Notes under the pieces: generated by a model | Told to the model about the DNA's origin: nothing | What the model saw: only the letters and a program-made list of their open reading frames with translations | Databases searched by the model: none | Source of the DNA: a virus | Taxonomy: Duplodnaviria; Caudoviricetes | Length of the DNA stretch: 64,000 bases | Reading direction: 5' to 3' (one strand) | Virus record (IMG/VR): IMGVR_UViG_2706795806_000001 | Location: 35,731 to 99,730 of that record | Program-made: the position numbers and the translations under genes | Shown: positions 3,730 through 20,306 of the stretch, piece after piece | Layout of the letters: every line of letters starts with the position of its first letter | Position numbering within the stretch: position 1 is the stretch's first letter

Positions 3730-3740
3730 GGTGAAATGTT

Positions 3741-5018: not shown

Positions 5019-5025
5019 AAACACT

Positions 5026-5709: not shown

Positions 5710-5715
5710 TTAATA

Positions 5716-5747: not shown

Positions 5748-5784
5748 TTGCCTATGTTATAATAAATTAAATTAGGAGGTGTAT

Positions 5785-5937
5785 ATGTTTGGGTATTGGT
5801 GGAATGTTTTGTTTTGCAAGCATGAATTAGAAACTGTAAACAAAGTGAGACACACATGGGAGCTAGGGTATCTGTACACTGTATATCATTGCCGTTGTAC
5901 TAAGTGTGGTTATATCAAAGGAGTAAAAGTGAAGTGA
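5785..5937 (+). CDS. small Cys/His protein, 50 aa (not in ORF track)
   Basis: AGGAGG RBS; MFGYWWNVLFCKHE...CRCTKCG. Confidence 0.7.
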   Translation: MFGYWWNVLFCKHELETVNKVRHTWELGYLYTVYHCRCTKCGYIKGVKVK

Positions 5938-6185
5938 ATACAATTGATTTGACGAAGAAGAAGGTGGAGAAGTTTGGAGGTATTTCAGGTCTTAGAAATA
6001 TTCTAAGTTTTGCACCTACATCACCAGATGCTGTGTACTATGTTCACAAGGTTTCTCGTGTTACTGGTCACATGGGTTTCTTTACAGATAAATTCATTGT
6101 TGGTGTTGACAATCCAGCAGATTGCTGTAAGATTAAAGACATGAGAGATTATGTTCGAGACTTCCATAAGACAAAGGTGCTATGA
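5934..6185 (+). CDS. hypothetical protein
   Basis: GTG start after AAGGAG, overlapping the previous stop. Confidence 0.7.
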   Translation: MNTIDLTKKKVEKFGGISGLRNILSFAPTSPDAVYYVHKVSRVTGHMGFFTDKFIVGVDNPADCCKIKDMRDYVRDFHKTKVL

Positions 6186-6307
6186 TGAAAGAAGTTTTTA
6201 AGTGGTTGTTGTTAGTGGGTTCTATTTCTTGTGTTGTCATCACATTATTACAGATGAAGGATTCAGGTTGTAATGGTTTAGATTGCTCTGAGGTGGTGCA
6301 TGAGTGA
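6182..6307 (+). CDS. small membrane protein, 41 aa
   Basis: ATGA overlap; hydrophobic WLLLVGSISCVVITLL. Confidence 0.55.
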   Translation: MMKEVFKWLLLVGSISCVVITLLQMKDSGCNGLDCSEVVHE

Positions 6308-6500
6308 AGAGTATCAAGTAGGTGTTAAAGTTATCCTACATACTGGTAAGAATGAATATGAATACCCTTATGAGATAACAGAACGACACGGTGAACACTT
6401 TCGATTGAAGTCGAAACATGGTATCAGGTTTTGTAGGTTGTGGAGAATCAAACGACTTGCAACTCAAAATGAAATAGCAGTAGACAGTTGGAGTACATAG
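6300..6500 (+). CDS. hypothetical protein
   Basis: GAGGTGG RBS; 66 aa. Confidence 0.7.
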   Translation: MSEEYQVGVKVILHTGKNEYEYPYEITERHGEHFRLKSKHGIRFCRLWRIKRLATQNEIAVDSWST

Positions 6501-6501
6501 A

Positions 6502-7005
6502 ATGGATCGTAATTTAGTTGAGTATATTGGTGGGCTTGAGGCATCTATTAAAGCATTGGATGTAATGAGACAACACAAGATTTGCTGTGGAGAATACCAG
6601 TGGGATATGTTGGAAGTCTTTGGTAAAGGTAGAGCAAGCCGAAAGGTTGTTGATCGTAAGCTGGAAGCTTTAATATCTTATGACAGTAAAACCTCATTCA
6701 GCCTAGATGAGCTTGAGAGAGCCGTAGAGCAAGAGTTGAAGAGACACCTAACAACCATAGATGAGAGCTTTAAAGTCGTCTATAACGAGCCTACAGTGCT
6801 TCCAAGACGATTGTTTGGTGCTAGTCGTTCTGATTACTGGGAGGCATCTCCTAAACTCCTATTGAAGTATGAGAAAGGTGGAGAGACTTACTATGTAACT
6901 GGTGAGTATCACTTTAAAACTTATGAAGGTGGTATTGACGAATTCCGATTAGATGGTCATAATGGTAATTGGTCTCAGTTTGTTACAGGATGGGCTTATG
7001 TCTGA
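6502..7005 (+). CDS. hypothetical protein
   Basis: 167-aa ORF with GGAG RBS. Confidence 0.8.
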   Translation: MDRNLVEYIGGLEASIKALDVMRQHKICCGEYQWDMLEVFGKGRASRKVVDRKLEALISYDSKTSFSLDELERAVEQELKRHLTTIDESFKVVYNEPTVLPRRLFGASRSDYWEASPKLLLKYEKGGETYYVTGEYHFKTYEGGIDEFRLDGHNGNWSQFVTGWAYV

Positions 7006-7174
7006 TAATGTAAAAGCATTCTTAATTGTTATGGTCTTTATTGTATTGTGCATATTTGCAGGTAATACAACAAGAGATAGACATCGAGAAGAGGTATGTA
7101 GTATTAAAGGTAAGTCCACATATATCTATGGAGGATTTGAATACAGTTGTTTAAATGGAGGGAGGTTGAAATGA
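6998..7174 (+). CDS. small membrane protein
   Basis: N-terminal TM helix AFLIVMVFIVLCIFA. Confidence 0.6.
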   Translation: MSDNVKAFLIVMVFIVLCIFAGNTTRDRHREEVCSIKGKSTYIYGGFEYSCLNGGRLK

Positions 7175-7283
7175 AAAAGATTCCTAAACCTAAAGTAGTT
7201 CCAATTAGTTCCAGTAAATTGGTTAAGTTATTTCCACCTATCAAGGTGTATACAATCTGGCAGTTATTTAAAGGAGAACACAA

Positions 7284-7541
7284 ATGTCACACGGCAACAT
7301 GACTATGGAACAAGCTAAAGAACTTCAGAGACAATATGGAGGTCGGGTAATCTCAACAGGTTTGACTGGAGAACAACGTGTAACTCATCACAAGCCGACA
7401 GATAGAATGGAAGACTTTAACTTAGCGTTGCACAGAAATGGTGATCACAATGCAAACATACAAGCAACTGTAGTTGTAATGAAAAGCCGTAAGACTCGTA
7501 CAGGTGTTGAGTCTCATGTGATCCAGAAGTTTGAGCTGTAG
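7284..7541 (+). CDS. hypothetical protein
   Basis: AAGGAG RBS; last gene of the rightward run. Confidence 0.75.
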   Translation: MSHGNMTMEQAKELQRQYGGRVISTGLTGEQRVTHHKPTDRMEDFNLALHRNGDHNANIQATVVVMKSRKTRTGVESHVIQKFEL

Positions 7542-7620
7542 ATATTCCCAGATATTCCTGAGAATCTGAACAAAAAGGCAAAACTTTTTGAAAGTTTTTG
7601 GATTATTTAGGGTGGTGTGG

Positions 7621-7650
7621 TTGACATAGGTTAGCCATCCACTATATAAT
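7621..7650 (+). promoter_or_regulatory. sigma70 promoter upstream of a candidate ncRNA
   Basis: TTGACA-N18-TATAAT with no convincing downstream ORF. Confidence 0.6.
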
Positions 7651-7690
7651 AGAACTCTTATGTAGTTTTAAACTTTAATTATTTACACAT

Positions 7691-7852
7691 CAATCAGTCG
7701 TAGGAGCATTTGCTATGAAGTTTTAATCTTTGGCTATATAGGTGGGAAGCTTCAGAAATAACTGGAACAAAGTGTCTAAGTGTTTCACCATCTTGATCGA
7801 GTTCATTGCATGGCTTCTGCTTTGAACAAGGAAGGCTTTCTATTGCTGATTG
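7691..7852 (+). ncRNA. candidate structured ncRNA (four-way junction)
   Basis: Closing stem CAATCAG/CTGATTG plus three internal hairpins with G-U pairs on the + strand. Confidence 0.5.
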
Positions 7853-8262
7853 TCTTCCTCCTTTCCTCTCTTCCACTCTCCCTGAAAAATTTTTGCAAGG
7901 CATGATGGATTTGAAATCTGAAACCATATACACCGTTTGTAGGTTTTTACAATCTTCACAAGAAATTACAATTAATCTGGAAGCAATTCATAAAAGTTAG
8001 AGAATTGCAATAGGAAATTACAAAAGATAATTATTTATTTTAATTGATTTTTATTTTTATTGTGGTATTCACACACGCCCACATATTAGAAAGAACAATA
8101 AACCTTGTCCGTTTCAGTGATTGCTATTATCTCAAGCCTTAAAAACATTGCATTAAAAAAGATTTCCTGAAAATTTTCCGAAAATTTAACATACAATTAT
8201 TTTAAAAAACAAAGACTTAACCAAAAGTTAAATATTATTTTTAATTATTTTTATCTAAGGTA

Positions 8263-8322
8263 TTGCAAAAATAATTTATTCCTATAGAATGGCATCCATA
8301 CCAAGCAAACAACTTAAAAGGT
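8263..8322 (+). promoter_or_regulatory. early promoter + conserved leader
   Basis: TTGCAA-N16-TAGAAT then ATACCAAGCAAACAACTTAAAAGG. Confidence 0.8.
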
Positions 8323-8329
8323 TATTAAC

Positions 8330-9007
8330 ATGAAAGCATTTAACTTTAAACATTCTTTTGAATATGACAACGACTTAGCACGTATTTACTTTGAAGACTT
8401 TGAACGTGAAACGTCTTTACTTCGATATGGTGTACGTGATTTTGATTATTATGTATTGTTCGCCACTGCTGAAGACAAGGACAAGAAATACTATAAAGTC
8501 TCTTCATTGCGTAAAATGAAGAAAACAGACCTATATGATCTTTGTGTGAACTTCGATCTAGTGGCATACTGGGAAGATGAAAAAGAGTATTTAAAGAAAG
8601 ATTTTATTGAAATGTTATTGACAATAGATAATGAGGCGTTCTATAATGGTCACTATGAAAACGTACCTTATCAAGATTTAGATAGCGATTTTGTAATTCG
8701 TGGGAACTGTCAAGGTGACTATGTAAAAATTAAATTAGTTGGAAAGTTTGAACCATACATGACAAGTCAGTATCTTGAACAAGTATTCTTTCAAACGCCT
8801 ATCTATTGCCGTGTATCTGTATTAGATGGCAACTATGAAGAGATTGAAGGACAAGACGAATTATATATTGATTCTTTTGTCAAAGACTTATATAATTTTG
8901 ACAAGTCGGAAGTGTTGGAAATTGTAAAGGATCAATATAAAGATGAATTATTTTTTATTGACCTATGCAACTATGTAGAAAACTGTTTTGCAAATGAACC
9001 AAAGTAA
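8330..9007 (+). CDS. acidic early protein, function unknown
   Basis: 225 aa, D/E/Y-rich, RGNCQGDY motif. Confidence 0.85.
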   Translation: MKAFNFKHSFEYDNDLARIYFEDFERETSLLRYGVRDFDYYVLFATAEDKDKKYYKVSSLRKMKKTDLYDLCVNFDLVAYWEDEKEYLKKDFIEMLLTIDNEAFYNGHYENVPYQDLDSDFVIRGNCQGDYVKIKLVGKFEPYMTSQYLEQVFFQTPIYCRVSVLDGNYEEIEGQDELYIDSFVKDLYNFDKSEVLEIVKDQYKDELFFIDLCNYVENCFANEPK

Positions 9008-9020
9008 GGAAAAAATTGAA

Positions 9021-9230
9021 ATGTCTTTAATTATTGTTACTCGTTACGCTCAAAAAAACAAAACTAGCAAGCTTTGTAAGCGTCACACTTTTAAACGTGG
9101 AAAGATTGACAGTGTTGATATTGAGCCAATCCCAGAAAGCACATTGAATGAATTATTGAAAGATAAAAACAATATTCACTTTGTAAATGTTGAGAAGTTA
9201 AGCGATTTAGATTTAAAAAGTTTAGATTAA
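9021..9230 (+). CDS. hypothetical early protein
   Basis: AAGGA RBS, ATG 9021. Confidence 0.75.
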   Translation: MSLIIVTRYAQKNKTSKLCKRHTFKRGKIDSVDIEPIPESTLNELLKDKNNIHFVNVEKLSDLDLKSLD

Positions 9231-9235
9231 CAATG

Positions 9236-9257
9236 AAGAGGCGCAAGCCTCTTTTTT
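9236..9257 (+). terminator. rho-independent terminator, possibly bidirectional
   Basis: AAGAGGC-GCAA-GCCTCTT followed by a T-run. Confidence 0.85.
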
Positions 9258-9339
9258 GTTGTCTTAATTTCCCTGAATGTCGCCCACCTCCTGCCCTTGA
9301 ACTCCAGTATCAACCTATTAGGCTTCGTCCCTGCTATAC
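9236..9339 (-). ncRNA. candidate CsrB/RsmZ-like GGA-repeat sRNA
   Basis: Minus-strand TTGTAT-N16-TATAAT (9372-9345); GC-rich body with CAGGGA, CTGGAG, CAGGAG, CAGGGA ending at the terminator hairpin. Confidence 0.45.
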
Positions 9340-9417
9340 ATACGATTATACAGACAAATAATATAAATACAAGTAAATATTTAAATTAATTTATTTTAAA
9401 AATAATTATAAAAAGAG

Positions 9418-9470
9418 TTGACACAATAGAAAAACACGCCCATAATGCACCACATAGACAAACAACATAT
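9418..9470 (+). promoter_or_regulatory. early promoter + leader
   Basis: TTGACA-N17-CATAAT then ATAGACAAACAAC. Confidence 0.8.
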
Positions 9471-9484
9471 AAAGAGTTAATCAA

Positions 9485-9793
9485 ATGATTAAGAAAGTAA
9501 CTAAACATTTTATTGTTTACTTAAATGAAGCTTTTCAAATTGTCTTTGCTCGTTGCAGAAAGACAGGTAAATTTGTCAAGCATTGCCTAGCATTGGCTGA
9601 ACTTGAGTTAGACAACAAATACAGTTGCATGACAGCATTATATATTTGTTTTATGGCTTTCTTTAATGGATGTGTTTTTATGTTAAATTCGTTTGACATT
9701 GAACAAATTGTATTGTTTAATATTGTGGCTTCACTAGCAATTTTATTCACTTTTTCTTTGTCGTTTATTAACGATGAATTAATTGAAAAATAA
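9485..9793 (+). CDS. early membrane protein
   Basis: RCRKTGKFVK basic motif followed by two TM helices. Confidence 0.75.
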   Translation: MIKKVTKHFIVYLNEAFQIVFARCRKTGKFVKHCLALAELELDNKYSCMTALYICFMAFFNGCVFMLNSFDIEQIVLFNIVASLAILFTFSLSFINDELIEK

Positions 9794-9806
9794 ATTAATT
9801 AAACGC

Positions 9807-9866
9807 TTGACACATTAACTTAATATCTGTACTATGAACCACATAGACAGCAAACAACTTAAAAGG
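9807..9866 (+). promoter_or_regulatory. early promoter + leader
   Basis: TTGACA-N17-TACTAT then ATAGACAGCAAACAACTTAAAAGG. Confidence 0.8.
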
Positions 9867-9875
9867 TATTACACC

Positions 9876-10229
9876 ATGTTAAACATGAACGCATTGAACA
9901 AAGCTTTAAATAACGCTAACTTATCAACTATTATTACAGTTGAAAGTATTGGAATTGAAAACTTTACAAGTGACAGAGGCAACATTATTGCCAATCAGTT
10001 TGAAATACTTATCAATGGTACAGATACACGCTATCGAGTTTTTCAAAGTTATGAAACAATCATAGCCGTTAAATGTGCAGGGCATACCGTACTAGACGAA
10101 AAAGCTTTAGAGTACAGCGCAACAACTCTAAAATATTTAAAGCTTTTCTTAGGTACTTGTGCAACAAAGAAAGAGTTATACAAACGTATTGATCAAGGCG
10201 ATTACTTGACAGCAGATTTAAACAAATAA
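9876..10229 (+). CDS. hypothetical early protein
   Basis: Start placed after the leader; FQSYETIIAV...YSATTLKYL motifs. Confidence 0.8.
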   Translation: MLNMNALNKALNNANLSTIITVESIGIENFTSDRGNIIANQFEILINGTDTRYRVFQSYETIIAVKCAGHTVLDEKALEYSATTLKYLKLFLGTCATKKELYKRIDQGDYLTADLNK

Positions 10230-10254
10230 TTTTTGAATTAATTTAAATAAACAC

Positions 10255-10313
10255 TTGACTAGGGTATCAAAAAGCTTTAATATTCTAGTCATACCAAGCA
10301 AACAACGAAAGGA
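10255..10313 (+). promoter_or_regulatory. early promoter + leader
   Basis: TTGACT-N17-TAATAT then ATACCAAGCAAACAACGAAAGG. Confidence 0.8.
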
Positions 10314-10320
10314 AATAAAC

Positions 10321-10743
10321 ATGAACATTTTAAACGCTGTAAACACTGAATTAAACCTTGCTATGATCGACTTTAGTGCTGTATTTACTTGCACACAAAT
10401 TACAGATAAATGGGAGCATGACAACTTTGTATGTGTGTTTAAAAACCGTGCTACAGGTGAAGCTTTCCAATTTGACTATAAAATGGGTATCGGGCATCGT
10501 CATAAGTTAGGTCGTATCATGTTGCCTAAAGTTGATAGTGTTTTGCATTCACTCATCATGGATTCATACAGTACAGATGAATGCTTTTCTGATTGGTGCG
10601 CTAACTATGGCTATGATGATGATTCAATCAAAGCTAAGGGCATCTATGAGGCTTGCATTGAGAATGCTAAGAAATTACAAGGCGTATTTTCAAAGCGTGA
10701 AAAGTCCCTTGAAAATATCAAAGAGCTTTTAGAAGATTTTTAA
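10321..10743 (+). CDS. hypothetical early protein
   Basis: AAAGGA RBS; FSDWCANYGYDDDSIKA motif. Confidence 0.85.
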   Translation: MNILNAVNTELNLAMIDFSAVFTCTQITDKWEHDNFVCVFKNRATGEAFQFDYKMGIGHRHKLGRIMLPKVDSVLHSLIMDSYSTDECFSDWCANYGYDDDSIKAKGIYEACIENAKKLQGVFSKREKSLENIKELLEDF

Positions 10744-10762
10744 AATTAATTTGAAATAAAGC

Positions 10763-10811
10763 TTGCTTTTAGTATGACTTTCTATATAATGGAGGTCATA
10801 CAGTAAAGCAA
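10763..10811 (+). promoter_or_regulatory. hairpin-promoter element copy 1
   Basis: TTGCTT...GTATGACTTTC-TATATAAT-GGAGGTCATAC...AAAGCAA. Confidence 0.75.
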
Positions 10812-10846
10812 CCTTGCTTAACTTGAACCACATAGGAAATATTGAA

Positions 10847-11326
10847 ATGTCTTTAATCACTTTAGAATTTAACCATGCAAACATTATCGAAGCAAGTGCA
10901 ATTGATTCTTTAGCCGATGAGGGTTTAGCTTTAATTGAAGACCTAGAAAATGAAATTGAAGAGCTGAAGGAAGAGAAAGAGGCTTTAGAGGAAGGCGAAG
11001 AGGAAAACGAGGAAGACAATAGCGAACGTCTCAAAGAAATTGATCAAGAAATTGAAGGCAAGGAAAAAGAGATTAAAGACCTAAAAAGTGACGTTGATCA
11101 TTTACAAGGGGCTTACAATGAGTTATCATGCTATAATGATATGGCTATTGCAGACGACCACATAGAGGATTACATCCGTTCAAGTATTGAAGAGTCAAAC
11201 GCTGAAGAGCTGGAAAGCTTATCGGATTTGATTAAAAACAATATCAATTGGAGTGGTATTATTGAAGATGCAAAAACAGATTATTCTGAATTGACTTTAG
11301 ACGGCTTTACATATCACTTTGCATAA
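10847..11326 (+). CDS. highly acidic protein; possible ArdA-like DNA mimic
   Basis: Very E/D-rich; C-terminal INWSGIIEDAKTDY resembles the ArdA (Y/F)DYE..ARD segment. Confidence 0.6.
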   Translation: MSLITLEFNHANIIEASAIDSLADEGLALIEDLENEIEELKEEKEALEEGEEENEEDNSERLKEIDQEIEGKEKEIKDLKSDVDHLQGAYNELSCYNDMAIADDHIEDYIRSSIEESNAEELESLSDLIKNNINWSGIIEDAKTDYSELTLDGFTYHFA

Positions 11327-11333
11327 GTTTTAT

Positions 11334-11367
11334 TTTAGCATGACTTTGTAGGAGGTCATGCACTAAA
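11334..11367 (+). promoter_or_regulatory. hairpin element copy 2 (no -10 box in loop)
   Basis: TTTAGCATGACTTT-GTAG-GAGGTCATGCACTAAA. Confidence 0.7.
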
Positions 11368-11405
11368 TGAAATTTAAATCAACAAACAACGAAAGGCATA
11401 AGGCT

Positions 11406-11573
11406 ATGAACTTATCAGAAATTAAGCAAGCGTTAGACAATGGCGAATGTGTGAAGTATTTCAAAAGCACAAACAAAGTTAGATTAGAGGGTGATAAGGT
11501 GCTTTCTAAGTGTATCAATACAGGCTTTGAAAAAGTTCTGAGCCAATCAGATTTAGAAGACTGCTTTATTTAA
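11406..11573 (+). CDS. hypothetical early protein
   Basis: AAGG RBS, ATG 11406; 55 aa. Confidence 0.65.
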   Translation: MNLSEIKQALDNGECVKYFKSTNKVRLEGDKVLSKCINTGFEKVLSQSDLEDCFI

Positions 11574-11587
11574 AGGGAAAAGGGCAA

Positions 11588-11731
11588 TGAAAACTTTCAT
11601 CAAAGCTTTTAATTTTGTACTCGATAAGTTTATCCGTTTATATTTATTTTTGTTTAAACTTTACATCTTACAATTTTGTTTAGGCTTGTTATACGTCTTC
11701 ATTGCCGTTCTAAGACACGTTTACCTATAAG
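11588..11731 (+). CDS. small hydrophobic protein, 47 aa
   Basis: GGGAAAGGG RBS; MKTFIKAFNFVLDKFIRLYLFLFKLYILQFCLGLLYVFIAVLRHVYL. Confidence 0.5.
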
Positions 11732-11741
11732 GGCTACAACC

Positions 11742-11864
11742 ATGCAACAAGCATATAAAAAGATCACACAAGACCAATGGAAGGCTTTAGGAGGCTTCGA
11801 CAATCCTAGTCTATTCAGAAAATCGCTAGGTCGGTTCGGTTTTAAGTATTATCAATATATTTAA
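11742..11864 (+). CDS. small protein, 40 aa
   Basis: AAGGG RBS; MQQAYKKITQDQWKALGGFDNPSLFRK. Confidence 0.55.
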   Translation: MQQAYKKITQDQWKALGGFDNPSLFRKSLGRFGFKYYQYI

Positions 11865-11883
11865 ATTATTTTTAATTAAGGGC

Positions 11884-11943
11884 TTGACAGTATTGTACAA
11901 GTCCTTTAATATGGCACTCATACCAAGCAAACAACTTAAAAGG
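11884..11943 (+). promoter_or_regulatory. early promoter + leader
   Basis: TTGACA-N17-TAATAT then ATACCAAGCAAACAACTTAAAAGG. Confidence 0.8.
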
Positions 11944-11951
11944 CTATTATC

Positions 11952-12053
11952 ATGAACTTTAACGCTATTATCTCAAAAGTAGAAGTTATCTATTTCGTTA
12001 TCATTATGACATTATGTGCTGTATTATCTTTCAACTCTTTTATGATTGGTTAA
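11952..12053 (+). CDS. 33-aa single-TM microprotein (not in ORF track)
   Basis: Directly follows a conserved promoter/leader; MNFNAIISKVEVIYFVIIMTLCAVLSFNSFMIG. Confidence 0.65.
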   Translation: MNFNAIISKVEVIYFVIIMTLCAVLSFNSFMIG

Positions 12054-12057
12054 TATA

Positions 12058-12435
12058 ATGGGAAAGGTTGATATAATCAGAGCAAAGTTACAAGTTCAAA
12101 AGCATTATTTAGAAACTGCCAAGCAATTGGCTAATGATTTCGGTATTAACTTTGCTATTGAATTGTTAGAAAATGCAGAACATGAAGCAATGAACCTTTT
12201 AAATTCAATGGGTTATGATGTACACATAAATAACTTATATAAAGTGATTGAGATTGCTTATAATAAAGAGTTGTATTTAAATCGTTTTAAGTGTACTATT
12301 AACAGCAATGAGTTTTATATTATCTCCGATATCTATCATAATCAAATGATTATTAAGACTAAAAATTCTTGTATATTATGTGTTGTATTAGAAACTATTA
12401 ACGGTTATAATGCAGTTACTTTCGAAATGGATTGA
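12058..12435 (+). CDS. hypothetical early protein
   Basis: 125-aa ORF. Confidence 0.7.
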   Translation: MGKVDIIRAKLQVQKHYLETAKQLANDFGINFAIELLENAEHEAMNLLNSMGYDVHINNLYKVIEIAYNKELYLNRFKCTINSNEFYIISDIYHNQMIIKTKNSCILCVVLETINGYNAVTFEMD

Positions 12436-12441
12436 TTTATT

Positions 12442-12627
12442 ATGTTATATGTTATTGCTTTTCTATTTATTAATGTGAATGGTGATGAGTATTTAAATGT
12501 TATCGAAGAGCCATATTTTAAGACAGAAAAAGAGTGTAATATATTTGTTAAGAAAAACTATGTACAGCGTAAAGATTTAAAATTTTCTTGTGTACGTGAA
12601 GATTTAGTTAAAAAATCTTTTCAATAA
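12442..12627 (+). CDS. hypothetical early protein
   Basis: Hydrophobic N-terminus, FKTEKEC motif. Confidence 0.65.
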   Translation: MLYVIAFLFINVNGDEYLNVIEEPYFKTEKECNIFVKKNYVQRKDLKFSCVREDLVKKSFQ

Positions 12628-12631
12628 AAGC

Positions 12632-12681
12632 TTGCTTTTAGCATGAATTTAAAGTTATAATGAGTTCATGCAATAAAGCAA
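12632..12681 (+). promoter_or_regulatory. hairpin-promoter element copy 3
   Basis: TTGCTTTTAGCATGAATTT...TATAAT-GAGTTCATGCAATAAAGCAA. Confidence 0.75.
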
Positions 12682-12706
12682 ACAAACAACTTAAAAGGCT
12701 TGCACC

Positions 12707-13150
12707 ATGTTAAACAATCGCTACCGTGTAGAAATTCAAAAACTAGACCTATTAATCTCTAATTGGTCACTCTTAGCAGAAAGTGACACACGCTATTTTA
12801 AACTAGGTTCAATTGACTTAGATTTAGAAATGGGCTTGTGTCACAATGCAGGGCTTTACAATGTGCCTTCTAATGTACTTCATGAAAGTTATTCTAATTG
12901 GTCGGGCTTCAGTGGATCGTTGGGCTACCCTGTAGAGGGAAAGAAAGCTTTCTATGATCACACAAACAAATTTACAGTGGAACGTCTAAGACTTGCTAAA
13001 CATTTACGGACTGATTTATTTATCAAAGGTTCACCAAAGCAGACATTCAGCCAAAAGGTAGATAAAGCTTTAGATAATAAATTTATATCAGTTCCTTTAT
13101 GCTTTCTTATGTTCTTTGCATTGGCTTATACTTTTGTAAAATTAATCTAA
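12707..13150 (+). CDS. early protein with C-terminal TM helix
   Basis: GLCHN...WSGFSGSLGYPV...ERLRLAKHL motifs. Confidence 0.8.
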   Translation: MLNNRYRVEIQKLDLLISNWSLLAESDTRYFKLGSIDLDLEMGLCHNAGLYNVPSNVLHESYSNWSGFSGSLGYPVEGKKAFYDHTNKFTVERLRLAKHLRTDLFIKGSPKQTFSQKVDKALDNKFISVPLCFLMFFALAYTFVKLI

Positions 13151-13312
13151 TAAGGTATTGCAGAATGATTAAATTTCTTGCTATACTTTGCCTGTCGTTT
13201 ATTGATGGAAGTTACACAATAGACACTCACAACTATTCTTTTATTCGTGAATGCTTTCACAATTTCTCTATTCACACAATAGAAAATAGAGAAAATTTAA
13301 TAAAGAATTTAC

Positions 13313-13372
13313 TTGACACTATAGATTTATTTCTTTAGAATGTAACACATACCAAGCAAACAACATACAAGG
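13313..13372 (+). promoter_or_regulatory. early promoter + leader
   Basis: TTGACA-N17-TAGAAT then ATACCAAGCAAACAAC. Confidence 0.8.
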
Positions 13373-13380
13373 TTTTAAAG

Positions 13381-13905
13381 ATGGAAAAGCAACTTGAATT
13401 ATTTGATACTCGTTTTAATCACAATGACTTTGAATACGAAATGTGGTATGATCGTTCGGCAGAAATGGCTGAAGATGAAGACGGAAATGCCATTGACTTC
13501 GATTGTGACACTGTTTACGCTCGTACTGAATTTGCAAAGGCTTATATTGATTGGATCAATGAAGAGTTAGGAACTAGCATTCTTTTTTCTAGTATGTTCT
13601 TTCCGAAAGAATACAACTTCATGACCGATGCAATTAATGTGCAGTTTACCAATGAAGACTATGAAAAGGTTAAACAGTGGTTTAAAAGTGATGTATCTAA
13701 CAAAGCTATCCTATTGAACAAGATAGAAGGCTATGCAACTTCATGCAGTGGATATATAGCTTTTCACTCTAAGGATGAAATATGGAGCAATAAAGGCTTG
13801 TTAATGGGTATTTTATTAGAAGTATTTGCAGAAGTTCAAAACGATGAATTTACAGCATACTTTGATAGACAATGTGTTTATGACCGTTTATTTAAAGAGG
13901 TGTAA
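13381..13905 (+). CDS. acidic early protein
   Basis: 174 aa; PKEYNFMTDAI and TSCSGYIAF motifs. Confidence 0.85.
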   Translation: MEKQLELFDTRFNHNDFEYEMWYDRSAEMAEDEDGNAIDFDCDTVYARTEFAKAYIDWINEELGTSILFSSMFFPKEYNFMTDAINVQFTNEDYEKVKQWFKSDVSNKAILLNKIEGYATSCSGYIAFHSKDEIWSNKGLLMGILLEVFAEVQNDEFTAYFDRQCVYDRLFKEV

Positions 13906-13907
13906 CA

Positions 13908-14117
13908 ATGAGATTTAATGTTAATGATATCCTATGCTTATCATCGGAAGGCGTAAACAGTTATCAAGTAATCCAACGAGATGGGGACTATTTAAAACTA
14001 TTGTGTACTGACTTTGAACAAGTTGAACAAATAACCTATGATTTGACAGTATACAACCATAATACAGAGTTTTGGATTGATCGAAATAATTTTCATTTAT
14101 TTGAATTAATCGCATAA
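13908..14117 (+). CDS. hypothetical early protein
   Basis: GAGGTG RBS. Confidence 0.75.
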   Translation: MRFNVNDILCLSSEGVNSYQVIQRDGDYLKLLCTDFEQVEQITYDLTVYNHNTEFWIDRNNFHLFELIA

Positions 14118-14123
14118 ATTCAC

Positions 14124-14178
14124 TTGACAAGGAAGTCAAACAAAGCCATAATAGGCACATACCAAACAACATACAAGG
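14124..14178 (+). promoter_or_regulatory. early promoter + leader
   Basis: TTGACA-N17-CATAAT then ATACCAAACAAC. Confidence 0.8.
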
Positions 14179-14187
14179 TTAAACACC

Positions 14188-14514
14188 ATGACAAACGAAC
14201 ATATCAATTTTAACGCCTTTGTTTCATGCAAAAAGACACGAAATAAGGAAGAGTATACAATGACAGCTAACCTATACTTTAACAGCACTGAGGAAGGTAA
14301 AAAGCTAGATAGAAAGACTTTCATTGTCAAGGGTGAAAACACTCAAGAAATTGAAAAGACTTTGATTGATCAAGTTGATAAATTTATTTTCAGTCACCCA
14401 TTGACAAAAGGCGTTGCAATGTCTAGTCTAGTATTGAAAAATGTATCATATAGAGGATTTAAGGTTTTATCTCAAATTACAACTTGGAATACAATTAAAT
14501 CAAAAAAGGCTTGA
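14188..14514 (+). CDS. hypothetical early protein
   Basis: 108-aa ORF after leader. Confidence 0.8.
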   Translation: MTNEHINFNAFVSCKKTRNKEEYTMTANLYFNSTEEGKKLDRKTFIVKGENTQEIEKTLIDQVDKFIFSHPLTKGVAMSSLVLKNVSYRGFKVLSQITTWNTIKSKKA

Positions 14515-14516
14515 AA

Positions 14517-14849
14517 ATGGAATCAACTGGGTATATAATCGAAGTCATAACATTTGACACGGACATAGACCATGATCTATGGGTAAAGAACAATGACAGA
14601 TTGACCGATGAGCTTTTAAGGGTTAGGCTTTTAAAAGAAAATCTAAAATTTATTGATCATGACAACTATTTAAAACCTGAGTTATATTACAGTGTAAACA
14701 ATGTGGATTGTTCGCACGGCTCATTTGAAATTGAATTACCCAACGTCACCGAAGAAACAAACATGAGGGAGTTTTTTAAGGTACGAAATAAGCTTTTAAG
14801 TAGAACTAGAAGTCTAGTAAACAAATACTTTAAAAGTGAACCAAAATAA
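14517..14849 (+). CDS. hypothetical early protein (start uncertain)
   Basis: ORF whose 5' end overlaps a TTGAAA-N17-TATAAT promoter-like site. Confidence 0.55.
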   Translation: MESTGYIIEVITFDTDIDHDLWVKNNDRLTDELLRVRLLKENLKFIDHDNYLKPELYYSVNNVDCSHGSFEIELPNVTEETNMREFFKVRNKLLSRTRSLVNKYFKSEPK

Positions 14850-14852
14850 AGC

Positions 14853-14901
14853 TTGTTTTTAGCATAACTTTCTGTATAATGGAGGTTATGCAATAAAGCA
14901 A
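14853..14901 (+). promoter_or_regulatory. hairpin-promoter element copy 4
   Basis: TTGTTTTTAGCATAACTTTC-TGTATAAT-GGAGGTTATGCAATAAAGCAA. Confidence 0.75.
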
Positions 14902-14925
14902 TCAAACAACTTAAAAGGGCGTGTT

Positions 14926-15258
14926 ATGAAATTTGCATTTAATGATGAAGACCAATTGTATTGGTTCAATGTATTTTTAGATTTGTGTTTTGATCAATGC
15001 GGTACTAATTGTGACCGTGATGCCCTTGTGTTAGGTGCTTTTAAGGCATTCACCTATTCAGAGAATCTTTTAGCAATGGCAAGAAAACGCCCTATCACAT
15101 TCACCTTTTCAGAGGCTGAAGAAACTCTTTTAACAGTGTGTTATGAAAATGATTTGAATAGTTATTACTATGGAGTAATTAAGCATTTAACGCCTAGTAA
15201 GATCATTCAGTATGGTTATACAAACGAGCAATTTAAACCTAAAATTAAAATGATTTAG
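14926..15258 (+). CDS. hypothetical early protein
   Basis: 110-aa ORF after leader. Confidence 0.8.
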   Translation: MKFAFNDEDQLYWFNVFLDLCFDQCGTNCDRDALVLGAFKAFTYSENLLAMARKRPITFTFSEAEETLLTVCYENDLNSYYYGVIKHLTPSKIIQYGYTNEQFKPKIKMI

Positions 15259-15261
15259 GGC

Positions 15262-15313
15262 TTGCAATTACTTTAAACGTCTATATAATGAAAGACACAA
15301 ACAACATAGAAGG
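15262..15313 (+). promoter_or_regulatory. early promoter + leader
   Basis: TTGCAA-N16-TATAAT then ACAAACAACATAGAAGG. Confidence 0.7.
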
Positions 15314-15320
15314 CAATGCA

Positions 15321-15605
15321 ATGAAACAAGATTATAGCTTTTTCCTATTCTGTCAATTGGTTAATGATGATTTAATCAATGTGAATAACTTATCAATTCC
15401 TTATGATCAACTTTTTCCAATAATGACAGAGCATTTCGAAGTATTTAAAAACTTTGATAGTAATATGGAAATATCAGAGTATGAGGCTATAGAGCTGTAT
15501 TTTGAGAATTCAGGAACTCTTTTAGCTGAATTGATGCGATTAGATGAGGAAAACGAGTGGGAACGACCAAAGCCAAAAGGCTATTCATTTTTGTTTGACA
15601 AGTGA
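15321..15605 (+). CDS. acidic early protein
   Basis: Start placed after leader; 94 aa. Confidence 0.75.
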   Translation: MKQDYSFFLFCQLVNDDLINVNNLSIPYDQLFPIMTEHFEVFKNFDSNMEISEYEAIELYFENSGTLLAELMRLDEENEWERPKPKGYSFLFDK

Positions 15606-15616
15606 GGCATAGAGCT

Positions 15617-15949
15617 ATGAAAAGTAATTTAAACAAACTGATTGACAAGTTAATCAAACTAAGAAACAATTGTGCTATCCCTGTTAGCTCACTAAATGAA
15701 TTAAATCAGGTAGCAATTGCTTTAAAACGTGCAGGGTATAAAGGACAGTTTAGCAGTGATTACGATAGCAAGCGATTTAGAAATCATATAGGTGATGCAA
15801 AGTATTTTTGTTATAGCTCGAATGACGGAAAACAAAGGCATCCTATAGGCATATCTGTCTACAATGTACAAGGTGAAGACAAAGAGTATATGATAGTAAA
15901 TTGGGATGTAACAGAGCCTTGTTATAGTAACAAATTACTAAGACTTTAA
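15617..15949 (+). CDS. hypothetical early protein
   Basis: 110-aa ORF. Confidence 0.7.
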   Translation: MKSNLNKLIDKLIKLRNNCAIPVSSLNELNQVAIALKRAGYKGQFSSDYDSKRFRNHIGDAKYFCYSSNDGKQRHPIGISVYNVQGEDKEYMIVNWDVTEPCYSNKLLRL

Positions 15950-15975
15950 CAACTGATTTAATGTAAACTTATGTA

Positions 15976-16004
15976 AACGGTGGCACTTTTCAAGTGTTGC
16001 CGTT
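15976..16004. terminator. hairpin, probable terminator
   Basis: AACGGTGGCACTT-TTC-AAGTGTTGCCGTT. Confidence 0.6.
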
Positions 16005-16863
16005 ATCTCATTTCATGAGAATTAATATTTAAATAAGAATCAATACTTTACGGCAGTAAAGCAATGTATCTAAAATAAGAACAAACAACATAGAGAAAAA
16101 CAACAAAATGAAGGTTAATAATAGCTTTCACTATCGTTCAAAGGCTATTAGAAGGACAAACAAAGACAATGGATAACATAACTCATCTATAACAAACTAT
16201 CGTTTATATACGCTCTAAGCGAAGCTTAAAAGCTTTCTTGCACTATCTTGTTTATTCTTCATTGTTCTTTGTTGTTCCTTATGTTTAAAGGCTTTGCAGG
16301 GCAAAGAGTTCTAATAATTGAATGTTTAAAAGGCTTGAATTAATTTCTTGAAGTATGAACATTGAAGCAATTTCTTGAAGTATAAGTCTTGAAAGCTTAT
16401 TTCTAAATGTACTCTAATTTACTTAGATTGTACACCAATTGTCAGGCATGACCCTATGTCTTTTGTCAAGAATTATTTTAAATTAATTTTGTTTAGAAAT
16501 GAATCAGAAAAGTTAGAGTTTGTCAAGCACTTTATTCAGTTAAATTTCAGGATCACACATTCAATTAAATGTCAAGAAGAATTCAAATAAACGATAAAAG
16601 GAATAAATTAATTAGAAAATTAAATAAAGAAATGTATTGCATTGAGAGGATAATTCAAGTATAATACTTTAGACTATGGCTGGAGTCTTTCACCACGAGG
16701 TTCGTAAACAAGTTACTGAGTATATCATATAAATGTCGATTTGTCAAGTCTTTTTTATATGAATTATTCTTATAAGGATGTGCAGGACTTATCACTAAAA
16801 GTTATAAGACTTAAAGTTATGAAACCTTTAGTAATGTATAACAAAAAAGAATGAATAAATAAA

Positions 16864-16925
16864 TTGACACGGCGTATGGAAATAGGCATAATAAGCACAT
16901 ACCAAGCAAACAACATATTAAAGGT
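16864..16925 (+). promoter_or_regulatory. early promoter + leader
   Basis: TTGACA-N17-CATAAT then ATACCAAGCAAACAAC. Confidence 0.8.
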
Positions 16926-16931
16926 TAAGAG

Positions 16932-17348
16932 ATGATTACACCATACAAGGGCAGAGAGATAGACTTTACAAAGACTGTAATGATTTACAAGAATCTTACA
17001 AATGGTCTATGGAGCATTAAACAAGGTGGAAAGGTTGTAGGTCATGCCAATTGCTTTCTATTGCGCTCTACTGAATTTAAAGTATCTGAAGCAACTAGAC
17101 AAAGAGTTATAGCAGAACGTAAAAAGTATGTACACGCTTTTGTTATTGGTTATCTTGATCCTAAATGTCCTTTGGATTTAGAAGTATTAGAGCTTGACAA
17201 ACGTATAACATACAACCCATTTAAATCAGGATCATTTCTATTTGTTACAAATGAATACTTGACACCAATAAAGAATGATGGTTCAATGTATTATATTCAT
17301 GGCGGTAATGGCTTAGGTCATTTACATTTAGTTAAATATTCAGCTTAA
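16932..17348 (+). CDS. conserved-looking phage hypothetical protein
   Basis: YKNL...WSI, RKKYVHAFVIG, TYNPFK motifs. Confidence 0.85.
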   Translation: MITPYKGREIDFTKTVMIYKNLTNGLWSIKQGGKVVGHANCFLLRSTEFKVSEATRQRVIAERKKYVHAFVIGYLDPKCPLDLEVLELDKRITYNPFKSGSFLFVTNEYLTPIKNDGSMYYIHGGNGLGHLHLVKYSA

Positions 17349-17376
17349 TTCATCAACTCAACAAAAGGCTATCAAC

Positions 17377-17562
17377 ATGCTAAACAATCCACTATTAAAC
17401 GACCATCAAACTATCTTGCTAAACTCCAAAGGCTATGAGCTTGTACAGTCAAACCTAGACGGACAATACAACCTAGTGGACAATAGAAATGGCTTAGTTA
17501 TACATAGCACTCATAAGCTTTCTATCATGGTCAAATACCTATCAGGAATGAGCTACATATAA
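17377..17562 (+). CDS. hypothetical protein
   Basis: AAAGG RBS; 61 aa. Confidence 0.65.
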   Translation: MLNNPLLNDHQTILLNSKGYELVQSNLDGQYNLVDNRNGLVIHSTHKLSIMVKYLSGMSYI

Positions 17563-17623
17563 CAATTAGTTAGGTGTAAGCCTTCTATTCATAACATGTA
17601 GTTATAATTAACTACTCATTAGT

Positions 17624-17650
17624 AGCCTACTGTCATGCAGTGGGCTTTCT
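17624..17650 (+). terminator. rho-independent terminator
   Basis: AGCCTACTG-TCATG-CAGTGGGCT followed by TTCT. Confidence 0.6.
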
Positions 17651-18072
17651 GTCGTCTGTAATCACAGCACACACATATCTAACACAGCCATAGGCACTAT
17701 GTCCACTCTAAATGGCTATGTAAGCTCGTTTAAGCTCATGTAAGGGCTATGGGTATGTCATTGTACCACTCATATATAAACAACGCTTAAAACGCATTAG
17801 AGAAGCTTACAGAGCTGATGCCATCCCATACCACGATATTAGATAAAAGTCAAAAGTTAAATCGTTAGATATTTGTAAAGTTTTGTAGATATTTCAATTC
17901 TTCAGTTGACTTTATTTCAGGGGTGTGGTAGGGTCTGTTAAAGCCATAATCTGATAATACCTCAAGAATAAAACTCTGTAGATATTTTGACCTATAGAAA
18001 AAGACCTCAAGAAATATAAACTCAAGGTCTAAAAATTTTAAAAATCGAAAATGCACCTAGAAATAAAATTCC

Positions 18073-18354
18073 CTAGTCACCATAAATTTTCTTGTATGCT
18101 TCTGATCCAACCCTCACTCCTTCTGCTGTAAATTCAGGAGGTGGATAGTTTTTATCATGATCCTCAACTACCCAACCACACTCACAAACTCCATAGACAT
18201 AGATACACTTATGAGGTCTACTTTCTTCTTCCACTGGAACTTTCCCAGCAAGAGCCGATCTTAGATCATAGTACAACTTCATCTCAAGGTTTCCCGAAGG
18301 AGTGAAGTCATCAAGAATTGCTTCTATCAGTTTTAATTTATCCGACATCTTCAT
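18073..18354 (-). CDS. hypothetical protein with H/C cluster
   Basis: HKCIYVYGVCECG. Confidence 0.7.
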   Translation of the reverse strand: MKMSDKLKLIEAILDDFTPSGNLEMKLYYDLRSALAGKVPVEEESRPHKCIYVYGVCECGWVVEDHDKNYPPPEFTAEGVRVGSEAYKKIYGD

Positions 18355-18628
18355 TTGGAATCTTCTCCAGAATCTCTGCCAATGTTTTCAAAGTATCCCC
18401 TGATAAAACCACACGAGCTGTATTGTTGATACGACCTGATAGCAAATTTATCTGTTTTGATATGTTTAGAAAACTCTTCAGCTTTGATGCTATACGTGGC
18501 ACTTCATCTTTAGCTCTTCGACCCATTCCGATATAAAAGTTCTTATCTTTCTCTGGATCATAGGCATTCAATTTCTCAATCACTCTTTCTAGTTGATGAG
18601 TGTCCATCTCTATGGATAAGTCTGTCAT
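18338..18628 (-). CDS. hypothetical protein
   Basis: GAGGAG RBS, ATG 18628. Confidence 0.75.
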   Translation of the reverse strand: MTDLSIEMDTHQLERVIEKLNAYDPEKDKNFYIGMGRRAKDEVPRIASKLKSFLNISKQINLLSGRINNTARVVLSGDTLKTLAEILEKIPNEDVG

Positions 18629-18871
18629 AATTAATCTCCTCTTTTGGTTTGTGCATGACACAGTTCATAACACTCTTGATCTGCTCCTTCTCATACTCTG
18701 TAAGTTTTGAGATGGCATCTAGGGCTTTATAGAAGTTCCTACTTCTGTTATTCAAGTCTAGCATTATATCACAGCTATTAGCATGTAAGGTATCCATGTA
18801 CAAAACGATAGATACCAAATAAATGCGACAAGACCTATCAGGATAATCCAGTCAATAATCTTGCCTACCAC

Positions 18872-19066
18872 CTATGCCACCACTGTAATAGCGAATGACT
18901 CATCATCCATAATCAACTTACCTTCAGTGAGTAGCAACTCGACATCACCACTGCACATATCAATTCCTTTTAAATATTGTCTTAGATATTCTTCAGTATC
19001 GAATACCTTTAAATCTACATCAATGTAATTTCTTGGTGTAGAAGCTACAGCTAAAACGTAACTCAT
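18872..19066 (-). CDS. hypothetical protein
   Basis: GAGGA RBS. Confidence 0.7.
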   Translation of the reverse strand: MSYVLAVASTPRNYIDVDLKVFDTEEYLRQYLKGIDMCSGDVELLLTEGKLIMDDESFAITVVA

Positions 19067-19075
19067 ATTTTCCTC

Positions 19076-19399
19076 CTATTGTACACAAGTCTTTTGTCCA
19101 TCCGTTACAACTAAGACAGAACATTTACTGTAATCGAAATCACTGGATTTGTCTGTTTCAGCCTCTTTAGGGATACATACAACTTCATTCTTACTGTTCA
19201 GTTTGAAGTTCATCCCATTTAGTGTGCAAGTACGTCTGTCACGAGCTTGTTGATCTGGGAGGCTACGAGAGCCATCCTTATCTCTTACTGTACTGACATC
19301 TTCATCACTCTTTAATGCTGGGAAGATTATAGATGCCAAAATCCCAATAATAGCCACTACAATCATTAACTCAATTAGAGTGAAACCTTTGTTTTTCAT
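19076..19399 (-). CDS. type IV pilin-like protein (class III signal peptide)
   Basis: MKNKG/FTLIELMIVVAIIGILASIIFP prepilin cleavage/N-methylation motif with Glu+5; GGTGG RBS. Confidence 0.9.
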   Translation of the reverse strand: MKNKGFTLIELMIVVAIIGILASIIFPALKSDEDVSTVRDKDGSRSLPDQQARDRRTCTLNGMNFKLNSKNEVVCIPKEAETDKSSDFDYSKCSVLVVTDGQKTCVQ

Positions 19400-19637
19400 A
19401 ACACCACCTATGTAGTTTTTGTCCGTAGTATATTGACTCAGGACAATGTTCAAAATATCCGTAAGCCCAATAACCTACGCACTTACCTCTAGCCCAATAA
19501 GACTTCTCAGAGGTACAAGGGCTTCCCCAAGCCTCCAAGCTATCTTCGACCCTTTCAGATATTCTACCGTACCTGATTAGGAAGTACAAGGACTTTAAGA
19601 ATAAAACAAGTTTAGTATATTGTTCTGTAACAAACAT
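19371..19637 (-). CDS. hypothetical protein
   Basis: GGAGG RBS; VGYWAYGYF motif. Confidence 0.6.
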   Translation of the reverse strand: MFVTEQYTKLVLFLKSLYFLIRYGRISERVEDSLEAWGSPCTSEKSYWARGKCVGYWAYGYFEHCPESIYYGQKLHRWCYEKQRFHSN

Positions 19638-19878
19638 CCCTACCTCCTATTGGAAGAATGATATTGTCAAACTTCCTTTCTCTGATCTTCCCACAATGCT
19701 TGCACTTACCAATATCGTATGAGAATAAGTACCAGCGATTAAATGCTTTAGGATAGTTTGGATGACCTCTTTTACATTCATGCTCCCAGTAATGAACCTC
19801 TTCGATTCGCTCAAATTCGCATGTGTGGAACAGCCTCCAGATTAAACCTTTCTTCCGTGTGTTGACGATAATCGGCAT
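19612..19878 (-). CDS. hypothetical Cys/His protein
   Basis: HTC...CKHCG. Confidence 0.65.
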   Translation of the reverse strand: MPIIVNTRKKGLIWRLFHTCEFERIEEVHYWEHECKRGHPNYPKAFNRWYLFSYDIGKCKHCGKIRERKFDNIILPIGGRDVCYRTIY

Positions 19879-20306
19879 GGTACACTCTCCAAAATTTTAA
19901 ACTTAATACTTGCAGAGAACCAAGATGTAGAATCATTAAAGATTTGTCCATATTCAACTGCTTCGACCTTGAAACGACTAAAAGCTTTAGGCATCTTACT
20001 TGCTGGGTATGTGGTGCATTCCCTCTCCCACCCATTTAGGGAGTACAGTTGAGCATCTGCTGAGTATCCCTCTTGGTATCTACCAAAATCAACCACCTTA
20101 TCTACAACTTGATGGTATTTTGAGATATCTTCAGCGACATAAAACTCTTTACCTAGTGGAATGTTTCTATTCAGGTGGTCAATGGCATTGAATCCATTTT
20201 GACTACTAAACCTGAACTGCTTCATTAGTTCAAATTCATCACCTTCACTGAGTTTAATAATCTTCAGGATTTCATCCTCCCAGAGATTCAACCTTTTAGC
20301 CATCAA
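19842..20306 (-). CDS. hypothetical protein
   Basis: 154-aa ORF; YPASKMPKAFSR motif. Confidence 0.7.
   Translation of the reverse strand: MMAKRLNLWEDEILKIIKLSEGDEFELMKQFRFSSQNGFNAIDHLNRNIPLGKEFYVAEDISKYHQVVDKVVDFGRYQEGYSADAQLYSLNGWERECTTYPASKMPKAFSRFKVEAVEYGQIFNDSTSWFSASIKFKILESVPCRLSSTHGRKV

Follow-up and report, generated by a model that had tools for sequence, protein, structure and literature searches.

Why should an early phage promoter hold its -10 box in the loop of a hairpin, and does such a hairpin simply come with the promoter, or is it an independent structure? The question is raised by four repeated elements lying at 10763-14901 of a 64,000-nt stretch of DNA (the window), which represents bases 35731-99730 of a complete 99,730-bp phage record. 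The published promoters, terminators and 'conserved regulators' of the phage vB_AbaM_Acibel004 are found in the window letter for letter (window position + 35730; Table S3, PMC4128745), for example P05 at 4959, P15 at 12632, R05 at 12680 and R07 at 14900. Acibel004 is a therapeutic phage of Acinetobacter baumannii whose early region is almost wholly unannotated, and its closest sequenced relatives are Acinetobacter myoviruses of about 100 kb that belong to the genus Saclayvirus. Window positions 1-17000 hold an array of small plus-strand genes without assigned function. About 13 co-directional sigma-70-type promoters lie at 9254-15976, and a terminator scan from 9254 to about 15976 returned zero canonical terminators. 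The proteins flanking the hairpin elements have no Pfam family or match only PHROGs of unknown function (ORFans). The annotation of Merabishvili et al. (2014; PMC4128745, Table S3) lists the third element as the sigma-70 promoter P15 (S3A) and the leaders behind the third and fourth as the 'conserved regulators' R05 and R07 (S3C); the other three elements are unlisted, and the hairpin, its repetition and its covariation are unmentioned. Our analysis shows that this Acinetobacter phage carries a real, non-random element that resembles the promoter-early stem-loops (PeSLs) of T4-like phages, of which the published annotation has copy 3 alone, as a promoter.

The four elements are as follows (bits refer to a covariance model, z to the fold of the plus-strand RNA).

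10763-10811, plus strand: copy 1; 74.9 bits, -23.1 kcal/mol, z -4.89; outer stem TTGCTTT/AAAGCAA, -35-like TTGCTT at 10763-10768, inner stem GTATGACTTTC/GGAGGTCATAC, TATAAT at 10785-10790 in an 8-nt loop.
11329-11371, plus strand: copy 2, promoter-less; 57.3 bits, -21.3 kcal/mol, z -6.43; outer stem TTTATTT/AAATGAA, 12 bp if extended (11324-11376), inner stem GCATGACTTT/GAGGTCATGC, 4-nt loop GTAG.
12632-12681, plus strand: copy 3, the published promoter P15; 70 bits, z -4.03; -35 TTGCTT at 12632-12637, TATAAT at 12656-12661 in the loop, inner stem GCATGAATTT/GAGTTCATGC, standard leader at 12680-12698 (R05).
14853-14901, plus strand: copy 4; 75.4 bits, z -4.20; -35-like TTGTTT at 14853-14858, extended -10 TGTATAAT at 14873-14880 with TATAAT at 14875-14880 in the loop, inner stem GCATAACTTTC/GGAGGTTATGC, leader at 14900-14918 (R07).

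Each element is 43-50 nt long and is built of a 7-bp outer stem (TTGCTTT/AAAGCAA), an invariant 2x3 internal loop with UA on its 5' side and A-N-U on its 3' side, an inner stem of 10-11 bp and a terminal loop of 4-9 nt; two U.G wobbles are among the last three or four pairs of the inner stem. In copies 1, 3 and 4 two or three bases accompany TATAAT in the loop, TTGCTT or TTGTTT makes up the 5' outer arm, and the two boxes are 16-18 nt apart. Copy 2 has neither a -35 nor a -10 box and keeps both stems, with two compensatory changes in the outer one. A sequence-only reading had placed the elements at 10763, 11334, 12632 and 14853; all are present, the core of copy 2 beginning at 11329 rather than 11334. 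The arm pairs that it quoted (GTATGAC/GTCATAC, GCATGAC/GTCATGC, GCATGAA/TTCATGC and GCATAAC/GTTATGC) are all correct, and its description of TATAAT in the loop and a -35-like hexamer in the outer stem of three copies fits copies 1, 3 and 4.

The elements follow closely on stop codons, which lie 19 nt (copy 1, 10741-10743), 2 nt (copy 2, 11324-11326), 4 nt (copy 3, 12625-12627) and 3 nt (copy 4, 14847-14849) ahead of the cores, and copies 1, 3 and 4 are preceded by AAATAAAGC, an AT-rich upstream region. Copy 1 is situated between a homologue of Aci011_149 and a gene starting at 10847, and copy 2 between its stop codon and the leader of a gene whose likely true start is ATG 11406. The inner stem has its 5' arm in the promoter spacer, where sequence constraint is small, and its 3' arm spans the discriminator (GGNGG) together with the place where transcription is predicted to start. 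The ordinary TTGACA promoters of Acibel004 have a CATA/CATG motif in common behind the -10 box; it occurs at the same distance in copies 1 and 3, and as TATG in copy 4. The published conserved leader AAGCAAACAACTTAAAAGG begins with the 3' outer arm, AAAGCAA, and AAGCAA at the head of this shared leader is complementary to the -35 TTGCTT. The Shine-Dalgarno sequence AAAAGG is found 10-15 nt past the hairpin, outside its pairing, and the 3' flank is A-rich (AATAAAGCAA), with no U-tract. We also observed a direct repeat, ATAAAGC, around the cores of copies 1, 3 and 4 (10755-10762/10803-10809, 12625-12631/12673-12679 and 14846-14852/14893-14899), with the one-base variants GTAAAGC behind copy 1 and ATAAAAGC ahead of copy 3; repeats of this type surround the 'b' copies in most of the relatives seen, but not in D22 or Aci02-2. 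The upstream AAAGC and GCTTT together form a small palindrome over the HindIII-like AAGCTT.

The elements are not chance. Their plus-strand RNA folds have energies of -18 to -23 kcal/mol and z-scores of -4.0 to -6.4, a stability matched by 0-1 of 200 shuffles, and in a 350-nt context the mean pair probability is 0.68-0.98. When the 99.7-kb genome was searched with a covariance model made from nine sequences, exactly these four elements were returned (E 1e-9 to 1e-12), and the whole genome held no other plus-strand match below E ~1; beyond these, copy 4 gave a faint echo on the minus strand (E 0.06), and a single match stood at E 1.5. No Rfam family was matched by cmscan in window positions 1-20000 at E up to 1.

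The same model finds exactly two copies in each of nine Saclayvirus genomes. Four further copies came from motif scans combined with model scoring: L046, L102 (in one metagenome assembly), L127 and L129, the last two being complete phages of 81-83 kb with terminal repeats and one copy each; the L129 phage is a distant relative of the Acinetobacter phages Phab24 and BS46. Strict motif scans taken by themselves gave mostly chance matches, and 7 of 9 IMG/VR matches and 78 of the 80 metagenome loci scored (89 were found) were discarded by their covariance-model score; L128, at 19.8 bits, was rejected as a family member. Phab24 (L135:174-218, minus strand) and BS46 (L138:1501-1545) themselves show weak model matches of 20-25 bits with an inner stem of just 5 bp (GATAA/TTATC). 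They have TTTACTTTTAG...AATAAAGCAAA in common with the Saclayvirus 'a' copies, and might be decayed relatives or chance matches.

Comparison of these sequences bears out the earlier proposal that the arms covary. In an unfitted MAFFT alignment of nine sequences, 98.1% of cells were paired and 7 of 18 pairs were changed on both sides; when the 3' partner was slid by 1-3 columns in the same alignment as a control, 36-50% were paired. The final set comprised 16 distinct sequences from at least 13 phage genomes or contigs, and gave 98.6% paired cells, 8 of 18 pairs with compensatory double changes, and 36 double-change cells, compared with 9.1 +/- 2.6 in shuffles. Fitting to the model biases the alignment of 16 in favor of pairs, but the effect is already present in the unfitted alignment, and RNAalifold recovered the same structure without being supplied with the fold. 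Pair 18-32 is seen as UA, AU, CG and GC, and the adjoining U.G pair 17-33 is invariant in 16 of 16 sequences, as are the internal-loop bases U8, A9, A41 and U43.

Does the fold depend on the promoter? The promoter-less subtype is made up of copy 2, L127 and L129, none of which has TATAAT and all of which keep both stems. Its members share AAGTTTTATTTTAG...CA(A/C)TAAATGAA, have loops of 4-6 nt and form a helix of up to 22 bp, and the inner stems of L127 and L129 (GGATAAC/GTTATCC) are two compensatory pairs apart from that of copy 2 (GCATGAC/GTCATGC). Among the promoter-bearing copies the -10 box varies (TATAAT, TATACT, TAGTAT and TTTAAT) and the stem is constant. Since the arms covary, promoter-less copies occur in three phages and the -10 box varies while the stem stays, the structure is selected independently of the promoter, which is what had been proposed from copy 2 alone. 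We also considered copy 2 as a translational switch over ATG 11367. This was rejected, because the frames opened by AAATGAA are just 3 and 7 codons long in L127 and L129 and homology to D22 places the real start at 11406, past the hairpin. The open reading frame (ORF) behind copy 2, 11367-11573, thus most likely starts at ATG 11406, and its homologue in D22 (L005:3860-4033, 43% identity) is unannotated, between vBAbaMD22_135 and _136.

The next question is whether RNA or DNA carries the fold. The plus-strand RNA folds better than the minus-strand RNA in every copy, by 1.4-10 kcal/mol over stretches of 59-66 nt, and the z-scores of the minus-strand folds are -0.5 to -3.4 compared with -4.0 to -6.4. 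With DNA parameters, the inner stem is reduced to 7-8 bp around a loop of 14-17 nt at -5 to -9 kcal/mol, the two strands are equal and the extension through G.T wobbles is lost. Moreover, the invariant U.G pair becomes a C.A mismatch on the opposite strand, and the spacing of the half-sites varies from 10 to 16 nt. Because of the invariant U.G pair, the better plus-strand RNA fold, the weak DNA fold and the variable spacing, a plus-sense RNA structure is favored over a cruciform or a protein operator, and the comparisons indicate that the fold is selected as plus-strand RNA, a strand preference to be expected if the RNA arises by read-through from upstream. The sequence-only reading had offered as an alternative a cruciform or non-template-strand hairpin that would show a single-stranded -10 box to sigma-70, in spirit like the promoters of phage N4. 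The -10 box does sit exactly in the loop in three sequence families of Acibel004 that are unrelated to each other (this one, P04 with its copy at 1207, and P01), and the plus strand is the non-template strand, the one that sigma region 2 reads. The early hairpin promoters of N4 act as DNA, and they too tie a promoter to an inverted repeat, but they have stems of 5-7 bp and loops of 3 nt and need a virion RNA polymerase, unlike the sigma-70-type boxes and weak DNA hairpin seen here. Given also the C.A mismatches in the minus-strand arm and the promoter-less copies that keep the fold and covary in three phages, such a DNA device is disfavored and seems very improbable. An operator, with two 7-bp half-sites around the -10 box that would bind a dimeric repressor of phage or host and shut the promoters off, could account for the inverted repeat straddling this box, and the non-consensus -35 could mark a separately regulated class of promoters. 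We nevertheless regard it as extremely improbable: the half-sites differ among copies but always fit their own partner, which protein recognition does not need, their spacing is not constant, the stem continues through invariant G.U pairs, which the other strand lacks, and covariation extends to the outer stem. The phage has no gene for a MotA-like activator, the MotA_activ domain not being found in its genome. A T4-type middle (MotA-dependent) promoter, or PmSL, was likewise considered and rejected; TTGCTT contains TGCTT, but sits in the -35 register.

PeSLs have been described in the T4-like phages RB49/phi1, PST/T4 and nt-1/KVP40 (Arbiol et al. 2010, PMC2839356; Comeau et al. 2014, PMC4122927), in the order stop codon, AT-rich stretch, sigma-70 promoter, stem-loop with G.T pairs, Shine-Dalgarno sequence and ATG. 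A stem-loop over the -10 box is among their commonest layouts (PMC2839356), and 'degraded' PeSLs that keep the stem-loop and have lost the -10 box are described in PST (PMC2839356, PMC4122927). The Acibel004 elements resemble them as composite intergenic cassettes placed directly behind stop codons, with a sigma-70-like early promoter and an AT-rich upstream region in copies 1, 3 and 4 (published for copy 3, predicted for the other two) and a stable stem-loop of -18 to -23 kcal/mol that overlaps the promoter, the -10 box being in the loop and the -35 in the outer stem. They also occur in ORFan arrays of a hypervariable early region, as conserved islands between unrelated genes with edges of indels and replacements that may likewise fall at the cassettes, and, as in PST, some copies have the stem-loop and no -10 box. 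Yet the phage is not T4-like but a Saclayvirus-type Acinetobacter myovirus, and its elements have an AU-rich two-helix stem with an invariant internal loop instead of a G(n)-loop-C(n) hairpin. There are just 2-4 copies per genome, and recombination between copies into mini-circles, known for PeSLs, was not observed in Acibel004. The missing U-tract makes the terminator role claimed for PeSLs unlikely here. Finally, selection of the fold is shown by covariation, an analysis absent from both PeSL papers. Our comparison gives clear evidence that selection acts on such a PeSL-like stem-loop overlapping a promoter as RNA structure itself, and not as a by-product of the promoter or as a plain terminator. 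It also renders the role of the 'SL' of PeSLs testable, since the 5' arm lies in the spacer, where mutations could disrupt and rebuild the stem and leave both the -35 and the -10 box intact. The map of Acibel004 gains two unlisted, predicted promoters and one promoter-less RNA element.

What might such an RNA structure do? We think it probable, with some reserve, that the element is a PeSL-type composite cassette and that its hairpin, in early RNA reading through from upstream, is a signal for processing or stability. The cassette would be a module of about 50 nt, reaching from the stop codon to the standard A/C-rich leader, with a sigma-70-type early promoter inside a two-helix hairpin. A transcript initiated at the embedded promoter would hold the 3' halves only and form no hairpin. 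Because own-promoter transcripts would lack the 5' arms, the hairpin would exist only in read-through RNA from upstream co-directional promoters. There, a double-strand-specific nuclease, for instance the host RNase III, could cut at the conserved internal loop, or the hairpin could block 3'-5' exonucleases, and either route would separate long early transcripts into defined units. If the processing signal is true, it would be a compact part for multi-gene constructs in Acinetobacter. Several points weigh against this reading. Both the read-through RNA and the cutting or stopping at the hairpin are predicted from sequence, and the published PeSL stem-loop, when assayed, terminated transcription strongly (PMC2839356). 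The promoter's discriminator and start site also include the invariant G31/G33 and the CATA region, so that conservation of the 3' arm may be partly promoter-derived. The stems are AU-rich, and in long context the minimum pair probability of the outer stem is 0.44 in copy 1 and 0.10 in copy 4. Contigs of related phages are joined at hairpin-less promoters too (11882>9444 and 13905>14123), so the hairpin itself need not drive recombination.

Among the functions open to a read-through hairpin, processing or protection of the 3' end appears likelier than termination, judging from the flanks. The classical PeSL model, in which the stem-loop would attenuate or terminate upstream transcription so that each cassette resets the expression of the next gene, is in our opinion unlikely. 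It can draw on the PeSL211/210 stem-loop, which cut lacZ read-through about as much as rrnB T1 (PMC2839356), on the same intergenic place directly behind the stop codon and on P05/T05 and P06/T06 of Acibel004 itself, promoters that overlap listed U-tract terminators (PMC4128745). All 13 published terminators of the phage, however, consist of a GC-rich stem followed by a T run (PMC4128745), unlike the AU-rich stems with G.U pairs described here; the elements are absent from the output of the terminator scan, their 3' flank is A-rich, and because no U-tract follows the hairpin, intrinsic termination is unlikely. A site for the host RNase III, of the type known from the early region of T7, seems possible but doubtful. 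Cleavage would occur in the 3' side of the internal loop, leaving a protective 3' hairpin on the upstream mRNA and a downstream 5'-monophosphate (5'-P) end about 8-10 nt from the 5'-triphosphate (5'-PPP) end of the promoter, so that both routes would give nearly the same downstream message. The T7 early region likewise has many promoters and no terminators. According to the rules for the Escherichia coli enzyme, substrates have about two helical turns, coaxially stacked helices being sufficient, and with an internal loop cutting can be confined to one strand, which leaves 3' hairpins (Pertzev and Nicholson 2006, PMC1540722). The 18 bp plus 2x3 internal loop of the elements (22 bp, 12 + 10, in the copy-2 type) make up about two turns and fit these rules, and the bases of the internal loop are invariant. 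Like the T7 sites (R0.3-R1.3, with R1.1 as the model; PMC1540722 and general knowledge), the elements are hairpins of about two turns with an asymmetric internal loop, lie between genes of a long multi-promoter early transcript and, if cut, would leave a 3' hairpin upstream; unlike them, they enclose a host-type promoter, and there is no sequence similarity. On the other hand, cleavage here is predicted from anatomy, the proximal and distal box rules were established for the E. coli enzyme and not for that of Acinetobacter, an AU-rich 18-bp helix is at the short end of the substrate range, and any hairpin recognized by a protein would show the same features. The Acibel004 genome encodes no RNase III, so the enzyme, if acting, would be host-derived. 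An exonuclease barrier or a protein-binding hairpin fits equally well as an RNase III site. More elaborate, and to be put forward only tentatively as rather doubtful, is a dual-entry mRNA, with the 5'-PPP end provided by the promoter, a 5'-P end about 8-10 nt away provided by an internal-loop cut of the read-through RNA, and the upstream message capped by a protective 3' hairpin; the promoter-less copies would then be the pure processing form of an Acinetobacter-phage-specific signal, for which the promoter spacer and the -35 were recruited as 5' arms. It is quite unlikely, finally, that the hairpin is the target of an RNA-binding protein or works as a translational element or 'insulator', recruiting a protein or hiding the first bases of the leader and so making translation differ between read-through and promoter-started messages. 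The 3' outer arm indeed opens the leader and is complementary to the -35, the bases of the internal loop do not vary, and GGAGG or GGNGG occurs in the 3' inner arm; but the real Shine-Dalgarno AAAAGG lies free past the hairpin, GGAGG is not conserved (GGTGG, GGCGA, GAG and AAGG are also seen), and there is no candidate protein. The reading that we retain is thus a PeSL-type cassette that probably acts as a processing or stability signal.

Other promoters of Acibel004 overlap hairpins as well. The sequence-only reading had pointed to a similar design ahead of a NAMPT-like gene, and the TGAGGGT/ACCCTCA stem enclosing GTAATAAT at 1221-1242 is indeed present, as part of a second family of unrelated sequence and the same layout.

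1207-1242, plus strand: TTGACA at 1207-1212, then TGAGGGT (1221-1227)/ACCCTCA (1236-1242) enclosing GTAATAAT; z -1.8.

Its stem begins 8 nt behind TTGACA, and for the gene downstream the family matches are NAPRTase and, at a weak level, NAMPT_N. The published promoter P04 is its sister copy, located at genome 33286-33320, which is 2.4 kb ahead of the window; the two-copy family reads TTGACA, then TGAGGGT / G(TA or GC)ATAAT / ACCCTCA, with the -10 box in the loop; no promoter was found ahead of the NAMPT gene of the Saclayvirus relatives. P01 (genome 2552-2600, outside the window) has a 14-bp stem with five G.U pairs that encloses exactly TATAATA (GTAGCTGGTGTGTG / CATGCACTGGCTAT), which brings the independent cases of a looped -10 box in Acibel004 to three. 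Stem-loops covering the -35, or the stretch from -35 to -10, with z of -2.4 to -4.8, are found at P05/T05 (4953-4985), P07 (7611-7645), P11 (10249-10293), P13 (11878-11906) and P18 (14124-14139), and promoter-overlapping stem-loops are therefore a general habit of the early region.

The genomic setting of the cassettes is mosaic. Identity of the elements is 83-93% inside islands of about 60 nt, compared with 35-45% in the flanks, which is background, and the 60-nt stretch of copy 4 is 95% identical to phage D22 with unrelated flanks. The two conserved copies are 0.9-1.3 kb apart in Saclayviruses and 4.1 kb apart in Acibel004, with one shared gene. Since 60-nt modules are conserved between otherwise unrelated genes, the cassettes probably also bound a stretch in which genes are acquired, lost or exchanged among related phages. 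Contigs of related phages, from runs X1-X3 and X15 (the latter from wastewater, labelled 'RNA-Seq' but probably DNA), break or join at cassette edges (10808>14163, 14506>14844 in three studies, 14180>14844 and 14902>15298), and no copy-to-copy deletion was seen among them. At 14506-14844, the ORF 14511-14849 is absent in runs X1-X3 (three studies), with 7 other letters in its place; at 13905-14123, the ORF 13908-14117 is skipped or replaced in all four runs; and in another form, seen in X1-X3, 11882 is joined to 9444 via a different TTGACA promoter. These three variants indicate that the early region is mosaic at promoter/leader boundaries. The gene order is also shuffled in comparison with Saclayviruses: the homologue of Aci011_153, which lies behind copy 'b' in the relatives, is located upstream at 9485-9793, and that of Aci011_160 at 9834-10229, ahead of the Aci011_149 homologue.

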